A stretch of 64,000 nucleotides of DNA from Escherichia phage vB_EcoM_HZ_ZJUN4: sequence record PP216085, one strand, 5' to 3'. The notes under the pieces are model-generated. The model worked only from the letters and a program-made list of their open reading frames with translations, had not been told where the DNA came from and ran no database searches. The translations under genes and the position numbers were made by a program. Every line of letters begins with the position of its first letter. Position 1 is the first letter of the stretch. Positions 4,351 to 58,310 of this stretch are shown here, piece after piece.

Positions 4351-4664
4351 AAAAGCGTCTATTAGAAGATATTGCAGCTTCAAGTAATTCCAGTCTAATT
4401 AAAATTATTATGGCTGGTGAAGAAGACGATCTGGAAATGCGCGGAAAGATTCATGGTTGTGACGATCTAGACTTTAAACCTCCTGCTTGGGATGCCATTA
4501 TGGCTATGGTTGAACGTCGCGAAAGGGCTTCTAAGAGTGTTCCGAACTGCCCAAAATGTGGTACCGAACAGGTACAATTAGTTCATTGGCAGACTAGTAT
4601 TCTTCGTTATAAATGTCGTCATTGCAAACACCGATTTAACCGAGAAGAAAATGACAAAGCGTAA
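4347..4664 (+). CDS. small zinc-ribbon protein
   Basis: C-terminal CPKCG...CRHCKH (CxxC-x17-CxxC); start overlaps previous stop (ATGA). Confidence 0.5.
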
Positions 4665-4893
4665 AGAATATATGGAGATTGCTGAAAAAGCAGTCCGTGA
4701 ATTAGCAATAGCTTATTATAATGAACATGGTAAATTTCCTGATAGATACAGCGTGCTTAAATCTGCTTTAACTCGTTCATATAAAAATATGCTATCAGAA
4801 GTAAGTGATATTATATACAAACATAAAGAACAAACTGGCCAAAGTCTTGATTATGACGAGACTTTTAAACAAGTACTAGGAATTAAGGAATAA
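4651..4893 (+). CDS. hypothetical protein
   Basis: Track ORF, 80 aa, tightly packed between neighbours. Confidence 0.45.
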
Positions 4894-6300: not shown

Positions 6301-6774
6301 ATGTTATTGACTGGCAAATTGTACAAAGAAGAAAAACAAAAATTTTATGATGCACAAAACGGTAAATGCTTAATTTGCCAACGAGAATTAAATCCTGATG
6401 TTCAAGCTAATCACCTTGACCATGACCATGAATTAAATGGACCGAAAGCTGGAAAGGTACGTGGGTTGCTTTGTAATCTCTGTAATGCGGCAGAAGGTCA
6501 AATGAAACATAAATTTAATCGTTCTGGCTTAAAAGGACAAGGCGTTGATTATCTTGAATGGTTAGAAAATTTACTTACTTATTTAAAATCCGATTACACC
6601 CAAAATAATATTCACCCTAACTTTGTTGGAGATAAATCAAAGGAATTTTCTCGTTTAGGAAAAGAGGAAATGATGGCTGAGATGCTTCAAAGAGGATTTG
6701 AATATAATGAATCTGACACTAAAACACAATTAATAGCTTCATTTAAGAAGCAGCTTAGAAAGAGTTTAAAATGA
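6301..6774 (+). CDS. 49: endonuclease VII, Holliday junction resolvase
   Basis: 157 aa; Cys cluster CLICQ...CNLCN; matches recalled T4 gp49. Confidence 0.85.
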   Translation: MLLTGKLYKEEKQKFYDAQNGKCLICQRELNPDVQANHLDHDHELNGPKAGKVRGLLCNLCNAAEGQMKHKFNRSGLKGQGVDYLEWLENLLTYLKSDYTQNNIHPNFVGDKSKEFSRLGKEEMMAEMLQRGFEYNESDTKTQLIASFKKQLRKSLK

Positions 6775-20185: not shown

Positions 20186-21145
20186 ATGATTACTGTAAAT
20201 GAAAAAGAACACATTCTTGAACAGAAATATCGTCCATCTACTATCGATGAATGTATTCTTCCCGCCTTTGATAAAGAAACCTTTAAATCTATTACAAGTA
20301 AAGGTAAAATTCCACATATTATTCTTCATTCTCCTTCTCCAGGAACAGGTAAAACAACCGTAGCAAAAGCATTATGTCATGATGTAAATGCTGATATGAT
20401 GTTTGTGAATGGGTCAGATTGTAAAATTGATTTCGTTCGCGGTCCTTTGACTAATTTTGCTAGTGCAGCTTCATTTGATGGTCGTCAAAAAGTAATTGTT
20501 ATTGATGAATTTGACCGTTCAGGGTTAGCAGAGTCTCAGCGACATCTTCGTTCCTTTATGGAAGCTTATAGTTCAAACTGTAGTATTATTATTACTGCTA
20601 ACAATATTGATGGTATTATTAAACCGCTTCAGTCACGCTGCCGAGTTATTACATTCGGTCAACCAACCGATGAAGATAAAATTGAAATGATGAAGCAGAT
20701 GATTCGTCGATTGACTGAAATCTGTAAGCATGAAGGAATTGCTATAGCTGATATGAAAGTTGTAGCAGCTTTGGTTAAAAAGAATTTTCCTGATTTTCGT
20801 AAAACTATTGGCGAGCTCGATAGTTATTCGTCTAAAGGTGTTTTGGATGCTGGTATTTTATCACTGGTTACTAACGATCGTGGTGCTATTGATGATGTTC
20901 TTGAATCTCTCAAAAATAAAGATGTTAAACAGCTCAGAGCTTTAGCACCAAAATATGCAGCTGATTATTCGTGGTTCGTAGGTAAACTTGCCGAAGAAAT
21001 TTATACACGCGTAACTCCGCAAAGTATTATTCGTATGTATGAAATTGTTGGTGAAAATAACCAGTATCATGGAATTGCGGCTAATACTGAATTACATTTA
21101 GCATATCTTTTCATTCAATTGGCATGTGAAATGCAGTGGAAGTGA
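20186..21145 (+). CDS. 44: clamp loader large subunit gp44 (AAA+)
   Basis: Track ORF trimmed to ATG after GAGGAAATT giving 319 aa MITVNEKEH...; Walker A SPGTGKTT. Confidence 0.92.
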
Positions 21146-24855: not shown

Positions 24856-24868
24856 TAGAATAAATCTA

Positions 24869-24889
24869 GGGACCTCCGGGTCCCTTTTT
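24869..24889 (+). terminator. intrinsic terminator
   Basis: GGGACC-TCCG-GGTCCC hairpin followed by TTTTT. Confidence 0.55.
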
Positions 24890-24972
24890 CATACAAGTAA
24901 TATAAATCTATACTTAGGAAAAATAGATGATTCTGGGCCCTTTGAATTCATTAAAAATTTTTTCACAAAATG

Positions 24973-25002
24973 GTTTACATCTCTGTTCTTCCGTGGTACT
25001 AT
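24973..25002 (+). promoter_or_regulatory. T4-type early promoter (copy A of repeated promoter-leader cassette)
   Basis: GTTTACATC...CGTGGTACTAT; leader ATACAACTATCAACTGATGCGGATTTGGAGAAT shared with cassette at 53744. Confidence 0.6.
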
Positions 25003-25036
25003 ACAACTATCAACTGATGCGGATTTGGAGAATGAA

Positions 25037-25417
25037 ATGAAAATCGCTATTTTGGTTATTGCATTGGGTCTTACTGGTTGTGTAGCTCAAGGACCGGTAG
25101 TAAATCAATCTGATGTAGGAAAAATTGTAAACTGTTCAAGCAAATTTTATAATCCTAATGTTAAGTGTTATAAAGAAGCTCCAAAACAGACATTAGAACA
25201 AATGCAGGCGAATTTTGATGAAGCTATTCGTCCAGATGAATCTGCACAAGCATATCGTAATTCAGATGTAATTACACGCGAAGAAAAAATTGAAAACTAC
25301 TGCGCTGTGCTTTGGGCAAATTGGGCTAATAATTACCAATGGCGCACAGGTAAAAATGCTCCAATGGAGTATGTAGTGAATTCTTATAATTCATGTGTAA
25401 AAAATTTGACTAAGTGA
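25037..25417 (+). CDS. predicted lipoprotein
   Basis: Track ORF 24848..25417 trimmed to ATG after GGAGAATGAA; signal peptide MKIAILVIALGLTGC with lipobox LTGC. Confidence 0.55.
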   Translation: MKIAILVIALGLTGCVAQGPVVNQSDVGKIVNCSSKFYNPNVKCYKEAPKQTLEQMQANFDEAIRPDESAQAYRNSDVITREEKIENYCAVLWANWANNYQWRTGKNAPMEYVVNSYNSCVKNLTK

Positions 25418-31074: not shown

Positions 31075-31103
31075 TTTACAAGCTGACAGGACTATGGTAT
31101 AGT
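31074..31103 (+). promoter_or_regulatory. T4-type early promoter
   Basis: GTTTACAAG...TATGGTATAGT. Confidence 0.6.
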
Positions 31104-31132
31104 AGTCTTGTTGGTTAAATGAGGAGATTGTT

Positions 31133-31946: not shown

Positions 31947-32240
31947 ATGAAAAAATTTGTTTTTGCTGCAATTTTTGCTTTGACTTCTTGTGCTGCTCAG
32001 CCTGCTATGGCGGGTTATGATAAAGATTTGTGCGAATGGTCTATGACTGCAGATCAGACTGAGGTTGAAACTCAAATTGAAGCGGATATTATGAATATCG
32101 TTGAGCGTGATCGTCCTGAAATGAAAGCTGAAGTACAAAAACAGCTTAAATCTGGTGGTGTAATGCAGTATAATTATGTTCTGTATTGCGATAAAAACTT
32201 CAATAATAAAAATATCATCGCTGAAGTGGTAGGTGAATAA
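31947..32240 (+). CDS. sp: probable Spackle (periplasmic lysozyme inhibitor / superinfection exclusion)
   Basis: 97 aa with signal peptide MKKFVFAAIFALTSCAAQPAMA; between 41 and 61; RBS GAGGAGATT. Confidence 0.65.
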   Translation: MKKFVFAAIFALTSCAAQPAMAGYDKDLCEWSMTADQTEVETQIEADIMNIVERDRPEMKAEVQKQLKSGGVMQYNYVLYCDKNFNNKNIIAEVVGE

Positions 32241-32851
32241 TGCTTTATCAAATGCACAAGTGCAAAGACACGTACAAATATAAAGGTGCCCAGTGTTATA
32301 TCATTAATCGTGAAAACGCAGGTCCAGGTCATTCGCATCAATCGCGGTTTGTATTCGTTAAAAACAACGAAATTATAGCAGTTGCTAATTACATGCTTGC
32401 GACTAGTGATGTTAATCCGGTGCCTTTCACATATTATAATCTAATGGACTTGGCGTACGATTATAATTGGTTTAATCATGATACTTTGGCTCATATTGAA
32501 GGTGTAGGATTTGATATCTCTTATTCTAGTTACTCGTTGTGTCCTATGAGCCGAGCTCATAAAGAGCCTGAATATTTTTCATTTCGTCGGCGTGTAGACT
32601 TTAAACGCAGCACAGAGTATGTCGGTGGAATCTTTGTTAAAGATAATCGAATTACTCGCATTATTTATCCTTTGGGCTGTGGTCAAAAAGATATTGATGT
32701 TGATTTAGACTTTACTGAAAACATCATTAATCATATTGCTTCTGTGTATTTTGATATTGATCACAAAATTGTAATATGTGGATATGAATTACCATCAGAA
32801 AAACAGTCTATTGATGACCAAATTTTTAATGCTTTTATGAATAGAGGTTAA
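32240..32851 (+). CDS. hypothetical protein
   Basis: 203 aa; start overlaps sp stop. Confidence 0.55.
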   Translation: MLYQMHKCKDTYKYKGAQCYIINRENAGPGHSHQSRFVFVKNNEIIAVANYMLATSDVNPVPFTYYNLMDLAYDYNWFNHDTLAHIEGVGFDISYSSYSLCPMSRAHKEPEYFSFRRRVDFKRSTEYVGGIFVKDNRITRIIYPLGCGQKDIDVDLDFTENIINHIASVYFDIDHKIVICGYELPSEKQSIDDQIFNAFMNRG

Positions 32852-44487: not shown

Positions 44488-44585
44488 AGTTTAAAATTTT
44501 TTCATAAAACTATATACATCAGTAGTTGATTATGGTACTATATCAATATCAACTACTGATACAGAAAAACAACTTGGAGAATAAA

Positions 44586-44855
44586 ATGGAAAACTTAATT
44601 ATCATCGAGCAATCTTTCAACGATTATGGTATGGCTTACGGTTATCGTGCGATAATGGAAGATTCTCGTGGATGTGTTATCGATATTGCTGAATGTAAAG
44701 ATTTACTGCAGCTTTTGAAGATTGTTCGCAAAAATTGGGATTGTGAAAACATTAAAGTTCGTGTTGTAACGGAAGAAGAAACTGTTTTTCATGATGTAAA
44801 ATTTGCCAAAGGTGCTGCTACTCTTCTGAAACGCATCGCTCCACTGTTCAATTAA
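44586..44855 (+). CDS. hypothetical protein
   Basis: Track ORF 44526 trimmed to ATG after TGGAGAATAAA; 89 aa. Confidence 0.5.
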   Translation: MENLIIIEQSFNDYGMAYGYRAIMEDSRGCVIDIAECKDLLQLLKIVRKNWDCENIKVRVVTEEETVFHDVKFAKGAATLLKRIAPLFN

Positions 44856-49250: not shown

Positions 49251-49279
49251 TTTACTTTACCACAAGGACGTGGTATAAT
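49249..49279 (+). promoter_or_regulatory. T4-type early promoter
   Basis: GTTTACTTT...CGTGGTATAAT. Confidence 0.6.
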
Positions 49280-53237: not shown

Positions 53238-53727
53238 TTTGACTAGTGAAATGAAGGTCAAAATTGCTGATACAGCAAGATACTCTTTAAAACAAAATCC
53301 AAATCAGGATAAAGCAGAAGTCATCGAAAGATGCCGTATCGCTGTGTATGCAGAGTTTTTTGTAGCAGATTGGTTAAGCGGGTATGTTAACAAAGGCCAA
53401 GAGGATGTTAATGACCCGTATACATACGCATGGGATGTATTGGCGCATCCAAGATACTGCGGGCTTCGTGTAGAAGTTAAGACACATCAAACTGACTCAC
53501 GTTGGATTTCTGTAACAACAGGATGCAGCGGAGAGTATCCATACGGTTCTGGAATAAATCTAGGGCCCATTCTGAATCATCAGGTCGCTGACTGTATAAT
53601 TATATTCAACACTAAAGAAATTCACCCAGGTGTCATCCAGTACACTCCGAAGTTCATCGGTGATAGAGAAGACCTTCGTAAAGTTGTAAGAAAAAGCAAC
53701 TACAACGGATGGTATCTTTCCATTTAA
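53170..53727 (+). CDS. denB: probable endonuclease IV DenB
   Basis: 185 aa ORF between rIIB and ndd; assignment mainly by synteny and length. Confidence 0.55.
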   Translation: MQKTNPGLQRLFQIPTFTLSNNDLTSEMKVKIADTARYSLKQNPNQDKAEVIERCRIAVYAEFFVADWLSGYVNKGQEDVNDPYTYAWDVLAHPRYCGLRVEVKTHQTDSRWISVTTGCSGEYPYGSGINLGPILNHQVADCIIIFNTKEIHPGVIQYTPKFIGDREDLRKVVRKSNYNGWYLSI

Positions 53728-53743
53728 AAAATTTCACAAAACG

Positions 53744-53773
53744 GTTTACATACCACAAGGACTGTGGTACTAT
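53744..53773 (+). promoter_or_regulatory. T4-type early promoter (copy B of repeated promoter-leader cassette)
   Basis: GTTTACATA...CTGTGGTACTAT followed by leader identical to copy A. Confidence 0.6.
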
Positions 53774-53807
53774 ACAACTATCAACTGATGCGGATTTGGA
53801 GAATAAA

Positions 53808-54014
53808 ATGTTTACTACAGCTGAATTAAAACGAGCAAAAGCTAAGAAAGGGCAAGGAAAATATAAAGCTGAATTAGTTAAAGAACTTCAGTTTGCTGAG
53901 GCTGAATTGAATTCAATGATTATTCAAAATGCTCCAGAAACTGAAATTGCTCTTAAACGTATTGCGAATAAGTGTCTTCGTGATGCAATTGTCGATCTTT
54001 TAGCGGATTATTGA
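53808..54014 (+). CDS. hypothetical protein
   Basis: Track ORF 53709 trimmed to ATG after GGAGAATAAA; 68 aa. Confidence 0.45.
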   Translation: MFTTAELKRAKAKKGQGKYKAELVKELQFAEAELNSMIIQNAPETEIALKRIANKCLRDAIVDLLADY

Positions 54015-54283
54015 ATAAAATGAAATTTAAATTTTATTACGCTAAACATAAAATAACTGATGAGTTTGTGTCAGTTGAATATTCTAGCGATGATGAAGGT
54101 ATGATTTATACTCGCTTGGGACTATCGCACTGGGAGTCTGATACGCCTTATTTTTCAACTCCCGAAGAAATTACACGCTTAGTTAATGGTCATATGAATG
54201 ACCACTGGAATGTAATTCTTTCAGATAGTCTTAAAGCGGCTATTAATAGTAATGAAATGAAAATCGCTGAGATTGAACTATGA
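54011..54283 (+). CDS. hypothetical protein
   Basis: Track ORF, 90 aa, ATGA overlap. Confidence 0.45.
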   Translation: MNKMKFKFYYAKHKITDEFVSVEYSSDDEGMIYTRLGLSHWESDTPYFSTPEEITRLVNGHMNDHWNVILSDSLKAAINSNEMKIAEIEL

Positions 54284-54468: not shown

Positions 54469-54498
54469 ATTTACAAGACTGTTCCTCTGTGGTATTAT
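54469..54498 (+). promoter_or_regulatory. T4-type early promoter
   Basis: ATTTACAAG...TGTGGTATTAT. Confidence 0.55.
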
Positions 54499-54526
54499 TA
54501 CCCTATCAACTACGGAGGAACAGAAA

Positions 54527-54640
54527 ATGAAAAAGATTGTTAAAGCTATATGGAATGTAGTTATAATACTAATAGTTTTGAGTATATTCCCAATCGTTTT
54601 AATGATTGATGTATTAAACGCTTACTTTGGATTTATGTGA
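54527..54640 (+). CDS. small hydrophobic peptide (37 aa)
   Basis: ATG after CGGAGGAACAGAAA; MKKIVKAIWNVVIILIVLSIFPIVLMIDVLNAYFGFM. Confidence 0.4.
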   Translation: MKKIVKAIWNVVIILIVLSIFPIVLMIDVLNAYFGFM

Positions 54641-57547: not shown

Positions 57548-57552
57548 TTTTA

Positions 57553-57578
57553 GGGAGAGCCTCGGCTCTCCCTTTTTT
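57553..57578 (+). terminator. intrinsic terminator
   Basis: GGGAGAGC-CTCG-GCTCTCCC hairpin followed by TTTTTT. Confidence 0.65.
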
Positions 57579-57603
57579 ATTTCAAAATTTTTTTCACAAA
57601 ACG

Positions 57604-57633
57604 GTTTACAACCAAAGCATACTGTGGTACTAT
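57604..57633 (+). promoter_or_regulatory. T4-type early promoter (copy C of repeated promoter-leader cassette) upstream of motA
   Basis: GTTTACAAC...CTGTGGTACTAT; shares 23-nt GTGGTACTATACAACTATCAACT with copies A and B. Confidence 0.6.
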
Positions 57634-57674
57634 ACAACTATCAACTACTGATACAGAATTACGGAGATTAGAAA

Positions 57675-58310
57675 ATGTCTAAAGTAACTTACATCATCAA
57701 AGCTTCTAACGATGTTCTGAATGAAAAAACTGCTGCGATTTTAATTACCATTGCTAAGAAAGATTTCATTACAGCTGCAGAAGTTCGTGAGGTGCATCTA
57801 GATTTAGGTAACGCAGTAGTTAATAGTAATATTGGGGTATTGATTAAAAAAGGCCTGGTGGAGAAATCTGGTGATGGATTAATCATTACAGGTGAAGCTC
57901 AGGATATTATTTCAAATGCAGCAACTTTATACGCACAGGAAAATGCTCCTGAACTGTTGAAAAAACGAGCAACACGTAAAGCTCGCGAGATTACTTCCGA
58001 TATGGAAGAAGATAAAGACTTCATGTTAAAACTTTTAGATGAAAATGGATTTGTTCTTAAAAAAGTTGAAACTTATCGTAGTAACTATCTCGCTATTTTA
58101 GAAAAACGCACTCACGGAATTCGCAATTTTGAAATTAACAACAATGGAAATATGCGAATTTTTGGATACAAAATGATGGAACATCATATTCAGAAATTTA
58201 CTGATATTGGAATGTCATGTAAAATCGCTAAAAACGGTAATGTGTATCTTGACATTAAACGCTCGGCAGAAAACATTGAAGCTGTAATCACCGTAGCATC
58301 TGAACTGTGA
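57675..58310 (+). CDS. motA: middle-transcription activator MotA
   Basis: 211 aa MSKVTYIIKASNDVLNEKTAAILITIAKKDFITAAEVREVH...; matches recalled T4 MotA. Confidence 0.85.
   Translation: MSKVTYIIKASNDVLNEKTAAILITIAKKDFITAAEVREVHLDLGNAVVNSNIGVLIKKGLVEKSGDGLIITGEAQDIISNAATLYAQENAPELLKKRATRKAREITSDMEEDKDFMLKLLDENGFVLKKVETYRSNYLAILEKRTHGIRNFEINNNGNMRIFGYKMMEHHIQKFTDIGMSCKIAKNGNVYLDIKRSAENIEAVITVASEL

Follow-up and report, generated by a model that had tools for sequence, protein, structure and literature searches.

The window, a stretch of 64,000 nucleotides from Escherichia phage vB_EcoM_HZ_ZJUN4 (PP216085), carries between denB and an ORF of 68 aa a promoter and leader that recur, nearly unchanged, upstream of other genes. 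The approximately 5 kb around this cassette (copy 2) share 95-97% identity with numerous genomes of the T4-like genus Tequatrovirus, the nearest being those of vB_EcoM_Nami and EcNP1. Judging from this similarity, the window is a Tequatrovirus genome. Its plus strand corresponds to the minus strand of T4, which is the strand of early genes and early transcription, and its genes run from about nrdC through genes 43, 42 and 41, dda, motB, 39, rIIA/B, denB, ndd, 52 and motA, and beyond. The window has around 16 early promoters of the general cassette type, all of them on the plus strand.

The sequence-only reading had proposed three near-identical copies of the cassette, a partial fourth one, and unrelated genes downstream, and all the strings it quoted were found where it had placed them. 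The pattern GGTTTACA-N(12-18)-TGGTACTATA occurs exactly three times (24972, 53743, and 57603) and never in 100 shuffles, and the 23-mer GTGGTACTATACAACTATCAACT has 3 occurrences for 0 expected. The near-identity of copies 1 and 2 does extend into the start codon: 45 of the 46 bases between the TGn and the ATG are the same (24994-25039 versus 53765-53810), the sole difference being G/A at 25034/53805. The fourth copy (44512-44588) is a partial relative, having TGGTACTATA, ATCAACTACTGATACAGA, and TTGGAGAATAAAATG in common with the others and a degenerate -35 (ATATACA). The downstream genes belong to four different PHROG families (phrog_1754, 4535, 1345 (MotA), and 3720) and encode an imm.1-like lipoprotein, the 68-aa ORF, MotA, and an ORF of 89 aa. 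A fifth close relative (...CTATCAACTACGGAGG...ATG) lies at 54469-54529. We rejected segmental duplication as the origin of the copies because the homology stops at the cassette edges. The parts of the cassettes are listed in Table 1.

Table 1. Parts of the promoter/leader cassettes, in positions of the whole window.
Feature	Coordinates	Strand	Basis or remark
Intrinsic terminator hairpin AGGGACC-TCCG-GGTCCCT and T run, 3' of gene 43; stem-loop part of cassette 1	24868..24890	+	Terminator scan; -13.9 kcal/mol, z -2.2
Cassette 1: A/T-rich UP element and -35 GTTTACA (24973-24979)	24950..24979	+	
Cassette 1: TGn (24994-24996), -10 TACTAT (24997-25002), discriminator, first transcribed bases; predicted +1 A25009	24994..25014	+	21-nt block invariant in 12 genomes
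Cassette 1: SD GGAG and A-rich tail GGAGAAUGAAA, ATG of imm.1-like lipoprotein gene (25037-25417)	25027..25039	+	1 mismatch to RegB/S1 consensus
Cassette 4 (3' of motB): -35 ATATACA, -10 TACTAT (44536-44541), GGAGAAUAAAA (44576-44586), ATG 44586 of 89-aa ORF	44512..44588	+	
Cassette 2: UP element, first base being the last of the denB stop codon (53725-53727); -35 GTTTACA (53744-53750)	53727..53750	+	
Cassette 2: TGn, -10 TACTAT (53768-53773), discriminator, start region; predicted +1 A53780	53765..53785	+	
Cassette 2: GGAGAAUAAAA, ATG of 68-aa ORF (53808-54014)	53798..53810	+	Exact RegB/S1 optimum
Fifth family member (ndd.4 promoter): ATTTACA, 17-bp spacer including TGG, TATTAT, then TACCCTATCAACTACGGAGGAACAGAAAATG	54469..54529	+	
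Intrinsic terminator AGGGAGAGCC-TC-GGCTCTCCCT and T run, 3' of motA.1; stem-loop part of cassette 3	57552..57579	+	-18.6 kcal/mol, z -4.3
Cassette 3 (motA promoter/leader): -35 57604-57610, -10 57628-57633, predicted +1 A57640, GGAGAUUAGAA 57663-57673, ATG 57675	57580..57677	+	Identical in T4

Copies 1 to 3 have the anatomy of T4 early promoters. Their -35 element matches the T4 form GTTTAC(A/T), lies 17 bp from the -10 (TTTACA-17-TACTAT, with a TG before the -10), and is preceded by an A/T-rich UP element, AAAAATTTTTTCACAAAA, in the region from about -40 to -60. Copy 4 also has TGG TACTAT; its -35 fails to match the T4 form. We aligned 34 T4 early promoters on their -10 and obtained, by majority rule, the consensus ...AAAAtATTTCA.AAAgTTGTTTACA-(15)-TGTGGTATTATA.aacTATCAACTA..gAgGAgaA.AaaAA, which the copies match, including TATCAACTA after the -10. 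The cassettes are on the early strand and precede early genes. The orthologous places in T4 hold mapped promoters, 5' of motA, imm.1, and ndd.6 and 3' of motB. With at most 4 mismatches, the same core is found at ten sites of T4: 5' of ndd.6, ndd.4, motA, denV, rI.-1, nrdC.10, nrdC.8, imm.1, and e.8, and 3' of motB. T4 early promoters were described as carrying "additional regions of consensus", with the architecture seen in our copies (Hinton 2010, PMC2988021). Both have the UP element, the -35 GTTTAC(A/T), the 17-bp spacing, the TGn, the -10 TAYWAT, the consensus past the -10, a short leader, and a GGAG ribosome-binding site. Copy 3 is identical to its T4 counterpart, and nothing essential differs in the others: we found a 3-nt indel, a few substitutions in the spacer and mid-leader, and the degenerate -35 of copy 4.

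As DNA, the cassette would be a very strong sigma-70 promoter (UP element, -35 GTTTACA, TGn, and -10 TACTAT) followed by a conserved discriminator and start region. Promoter activity, start site, and RegB cleavage are carried over to vB_EcoM_HZ_ZJUN4 from the T4 literature. By analogy with T4, the promoters would fire right after infection with the unmodified host RNA polymerase, and the transcript would begin at about AUCAAC. A literature search for mappings of T4 transcription start sites by RNA-seq gave nothing directly usable. Given its poor -35, copy 4 may not be an active promoter.

Two other features of the spacers were observed among the early promoters. A motif CCACAAGGA(C/T)(T)GTGG, forming a 5-bp hairpin in the -35/-10 interval, is common to the promoters at 2316-2330, 49257-49271, and 53751-53765. 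These three have different -10/leader types, which adds to the evidence for an independent assortment of spacers and leaders. In many early promoters, an inverted repeat pairs the spacer with the bases just 3' of the -10 (e.g., gacaggacta-TGGTATAGT-agtcttgt), as at 31081-31112 of the window and at 20583, 57961, 73910, 133302, and 129890 of T4. Such repeats make up the class of "stem-loop overlapping the -10" described for PeSLs (see below).

The conservation had been thought to run beyond the promoter into the 5' untranslated region, and this holds in part. Much of ACAACTATCAAC turned out to be T4 consensus extending past the start site, but the identity does continue beyond the consensus. It has three layers. 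The first, TGGTACTATACAACTATCAAC, is the T4 early-promoter consensus, which reaches about 13 nt past the -10 hexamer in the 34 T4 promoters. The second, GGAGAAUAAAA, coincides base for base with the RegB/S1 cleavage site published as optimal. The third is a short mid-leader, specific to the subfamily and variable among orthologues. Since the alignment of the 34 T4 early promoters includes it, the "leader head" ACAACTATCAACTA is part of what early promoters have in common generally; it comprises the discriminator and the start site as well as the bases transcribed first. At the same distance from the -10, TATCAAC is also seen in 4 of the 11 early promoters of RB69, a phage of a different genus (Mosigvirus).

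Three roles had been suggested for the shared leader: an RNase processing site, the operator of an RNA-binding repressor, or part of a cassette spread by recombination. The first is supported, as the 3' end of the leader, GGAGAAUAAAA, is the published optimum of the T4 RegB/S1 endoribonuclease, and cleavage is predicted here. RegB cuts were mapped in T4, where the target has to be single-stranded and the ribosomal protein S1 stimulates cleavage (Durand et al. 2006, PMC1702504). The consensus is an 11-nt sequence, GGAG (rarely GGAU) followed by RAYARAA, in the intergenic translation-initiation region of early mRNA (PMC1702504; Uzan & Miller 2010, PMC3014915). The Shine-Dalgarno of motA is itself a known target and is cut by RegB. 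All four copies have GGAG 6-8 nt before the ATG (at 25027, 53798, 57663, and 44576). The 7 nt that follow match the consensus exactly in copies 2 and 4 (AAUAAAA) and with one mismatch to RAYARAA in copies 1 (AAUGAAA) and 3 (AUUAGAA). The minimum free energies of the four leaders, from -0.6 to -4.7 kcal/mol, are no better than those of shuffled sequences (z from 0 to +1), and the candidate RegB target region is single-stranded. Hence, the likeness to the T4 sites comprises a GGAG in the intergenic Shine-Dalgarno of an early transcript, the adjacent A-rich heptamer, and the single-stranded region. The difference is that copies 1 and 3 each depart by one base from GGAGRAYARAA. The gene regB maps outside the window (at 62.3 kb in T4). 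It is near-universal in relatives, being present in 1137 phage records, 500 of which at 95% protein identity or more.

The leader would be an unstructured segment of 30-45 nt ending in GGAG, an A-rich tail, and AUG. Ribosomes would bind strongly at this tail region, which would at once be the 11-nt target on which RegB acts with the ribosomal protein S1. From what is known in T4, we propose that a RegB cut inside GGAG shuts off translation of the early messages within minutes. As a separate observation, the A-rich tail of cassette 1 (25032-25040) contains an extra ATG in ATGAAATGA that reads Met-Lys-stop and overlaps the real start codon at 25037; this two-codon arrangement is also present in T4.

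The second role fared poorly. According to it, the leader would be the operator of a translational repressor binding RNA, RegA-like or unknown, or a structured cis-regulatory RNA, and would co-regulate the downstream genes. The identity running through the 5' untranslated region up to the AUG fits this idea, and T4 has such a repressor of translation in RegA, the gene of which maps to this part of the genome. Yet, the known targets of RegA are replication genes, with AU-rich sites at their AUG, and these cassettes are not known to be among them. The folding energies given above, together with a scan of the whole window that matched no Rfam family, are at odds with a structured leader, and we rejected a structured riboregulator on the grounds that none of the four leaders surpasses its shuffled controls. 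The pattern of variation also contradicts an operator. Among 12 genomes at the gene 43/imm.1 locus (site A), no column varies out of the 21 of the TGn/-10/start block, and only 1 out of 17 varies in the SD/RegB tail and ATG, versus 9 out of 14 in the spacer and 8 out of 11 in the mid-leader ((ACT)GATRCGG). The mid-leader, which is the sole segment outside of the promoter and RegB consensus sequences, is thus the one that varies the most among orthologues, and it has a 3-nt indel. At the locus of copy 2 (site B), one IMG/VR genome has a different leader type in its place. The part of the leader that lies outside of the two consensus sequences is therefore not under visible constraint, which argues against a repressor operator and makes this explanation very unlikely.

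The third role, recombination, corresponds to a published phenomenon. PeSLs are conserved cassettes of about 100 bp comprising an AT-rich region, an early promoter, often a stem-loop terminator, an SD, and an ATG; recombination among them gives rise to mini-circles and reshuffles the ORFs of hyperplastic regions (Arbiol et al. 2010, PMC2839356). The concept was extended to T-even phages with the pair PST/T4, with a promoter TTTACW-N17-TAYWAT and a stem AGNA-loop-TCNT, and the denB-ndd locus (PST ORF268/269) is the worked example, in Fig. 6A (Comeau, Arbiol & Krisch 2014, PMC4122927). The exchange of that figure took place at the locus of copy 2: PST ORF269 is 100% identical to the 68-aa ORF of the window, and the PST cassette is one base off copy 2. 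Our cassettes resemble PeSLs in their size (about 100 bp), in what they are made of (an AT-rich region, then the early promoter, an SD, and the start codon), in their concentration in hyperplastic regions, and in their position at indels and gene swaps between close relatives, and they match the T-even promoter consensus. The stem consensus is matched by the terminators (AGGGA...TCCCT) upstream of copy 1 (24868-24885) and copy 3 (57552-57573). Copy 4 has, in place of the upstream stem-loop, a palindrome across the -10. We did not find a stem-loop upstream of copy 2, only a CCACA-N5-TGTGG hairpin in its spacer, and this copy therefore fits the PeSL definition only in part.

The comparison of related genomes revealed the footprints expected from a cassette spread by recombination, as indel or replacement junctions and block conversions lie at the cassettes in 12 related genomes. 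An exact-pattern scan of IMG/VR returned only about 5 T4-like genomes, and the comparison was then made on GenBank phage records. We compared the window with T4, Nami, slur02, vB_SsoM_113, LF73P3, UGKSEcP1, PST, and five IMG/VR genomes. Sites A and B were covered in 12 genomes, site C in 9, and site D in 7. All four sites are junctions, each cassette adjoining indels or gene replacements between close relatives.

At site A, what comes 3' of the cassette, ATGAAAAT included, is the imm.1 lipoprotein gene or an unrelated lipoprotein gene (MKIVMGC... / MKIVYGC...). In slur02 (32037-32273) and UGKSEcP1 (4620-4877), an annotated CDS for an extra lipoprotein-like ORF of 78-85 aa stands between the gene-43 cassette and imm.1, and in other relatives this gene is found directly 3' of the cassette in place of imm.1. 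Site B has three arrangements: the ORFs of 68 and 90 aa in the window, the latter alone in several genomes, and only a remnant in T4. This remnant is a mini-ORF of 8 codons, MKIAEIEL (166,997-167,022, minus strand), located 3' of the denB-proximal early promoter and overlapping the start of ndd.6. It corresponds to the C-terminus of the 90-aa ORF (54011-54283; PST ORF268), the T4 deletion spanning about 450 bp with the junction AATAAAATG/AATGAAATG. At site C, three genomes have a 75-aa ORF (MKFKIENEIV...) and a second, different early-promoter cassette between motA.1 and motA (35211-35600 in L029, 35110-35500 in L031, which is UGKSEcP1, and about 1588 on the minus strand of L030). A direct repeat of 23 nt, CTATCAAATAAATGAACTGAAAC, flanks the insert, and such repeats around the 75-aa ORF are consistent with PeSL mini-circles being formed. 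At site D, most of the 89-aa ORF was deleted in T4, Nami, LF73P3, and UGKSEcP1, with the loss of about 210 bp at the junction ATGGAAAA/ATGTAAAA. The 11-codon ORF MENSLKVLILF, which these four genomes have 3' of the motB-proximal cassette (approximately 6,520-6,552 in T4), is a frame-shifted deletion derivative of the window ORF (44586-44855).

The cassettes themselves were also exchanged in blocks. At the ndd.4 site, some orthologues have TGGTATTATTACCCTATC and others TGGTACTATACAACTATC, although the sequence around the block is nearly the same. At the site of the 75-aa ORF, the whole spacer is either of the motA type, aaccaaagcatactg, or of the nrdC.10/frd.3 type, aagcataaagcttta, matching paralogous promoters. 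As a control, seven sets of other orthologous early promoters from the same genomes revealed point changes only. The G in the GATGCGG common to copies 1 and 2 is present elsewhere only at the imm.1 site of Nami, and at the denB site of no other genome, PST included. The homogenisation of copies 1 and 2 with each other is thus suggestive, as it is read from one shared base and a slippage-prone indel of 3 nt; the block swaps at the ndd.4 site and at that of the 75-aa ORF are clearer.

These footprints bear on two other accounts of the similarity. If it were purely convergent, each site would have been selected independently towards an optimal promoter and ribosome-binding sequence, and no recombination would have taken place between copies. 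The most conserved blocks do fall on consensus sequences with a function, and a second genus has the TATCAAC start motif as well, but identity is also found outside of any consensus, as in the mid-leader GATGCGGATTT of copies 1 and 2. Paralogous promoters have identical 15-nt spacers (aagcataaagcttta at T4 nrdC.10 and frd.3, aagactgttcctctg at two Sso113 sites), the differences between orthologous sites are clustered replacements of blocks, each an exact match to paralogues, and an ORF was inserted between 23-nt direct repeats. We regard convergence alone as highly improbable. The other account holds that the cassettes are sites of a dedicated site-specific mobile-element system, integron-like and with its own recombinase, rather than substrates of general homologous recombination. 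Insertions are precisely intergenic, and the possibility was raised for the conserved stem-loop in the original PeSL study (Arbiol 2010, PMC2839356). Against it, the junctions are scattered over the spacer, the -10/start block, the leader, and SD-ATG microhomologies, with no single core site; copy 2 lacks the stem-loop; a non-systematic look at the inspected ORFs and annotations met no integrase-like gene; and T4 is known to recombine at very short homologies. This makes a dedicated system extremely unlikely.

We propose instead that the same 85-100 bp or so precede unrelated genes because T4 homologous recombination uses these repeats as crossover points. Genes would be inserted, deleted, or swapped at the 3' edge of a cassette, and segments would be copied between paralogous cassettes. 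Lambdoid morons and the gene cassettes of integrons offer a parallel, since in these too an accessory gene moves singly, together with a promoter and terminator of its own, and comes to lie between genes already present. The difference is in the substrate: the regulatory sequences of morons are not what recombines and integrons rely on attC sites and an integrase, whereas here the homology is provided by the repeated promoter/leader itself.

The palindrome of copy 4 is a separate matter. It is a near-palindrome (44518-44560) centred on the -10, with arms of 20 nt that are 85% complementary and an inner part of 13 nt that is perfect. The 5' end of the family transcript is ATCAACTACTGAT, a sequence also present as the motA leader at 57640-57652, and the left arm, ATCAGTAGTTGAT, is exactly its reverse complement. 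The palindrome, folded as RNA, has an energy of -20.2 kcal/mol (z -5.7). Its conservation extends to 7 genomes, with one A-to-G change that keeps a G.U pair. There is a small chance that the 13-nt "anti-leader" of copy 4, whose complementarity to the 5' end AUCAACUACUGAU is perfect, pairs in trans with early mRNAs of this family.

The block TGGTACTATACAACTATCAAC, which extends from the TGn/-10 through the first 6 transcribed bases, is the part of the cassettes with the strictest conservation in the 12 genomes. The complete invariance of its 21 nt exceeds the known needs of sigma-70 contacts, and RegB does not account for it. There is a slim chance that the abrupt shut-off of T4 early promoters works through a factor recognising this block, or that the block is what is recognised in Alt-dependent stimulation.

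Our analysis comprised the anatomy of the cassettes, their match to both consensus sequences, the absence of RNA structure, and the comparative footprints of recombination. Taken together, these results lead us to give a probability of about 0.9 to copies 1-4 being T4-type early-promoter/translation-initiation cassettes, the T-even version of the published PeSL elements. The cassettes are real, probably functional, and ordinary for T4-like phages, and have already been described. They combine three published things: the T4 early-promoter consensus, a RegB/S1 target doubling as ribosome-binding site, and cassette recombination of the PeSL type. As read from the compared sequences, the short block conversions between paralogous cassettes are an addition to the published account of PeSLs. 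The cassettes explain how dozens of small accessory genes are expressed in the first minute of infection and then silenced, as well as why accessory genes are readily exchanged among related T4-like phages. Both explanations are already established in the literature, to which this phage adds one more example genome and detailed footprints of junctions and conversions.
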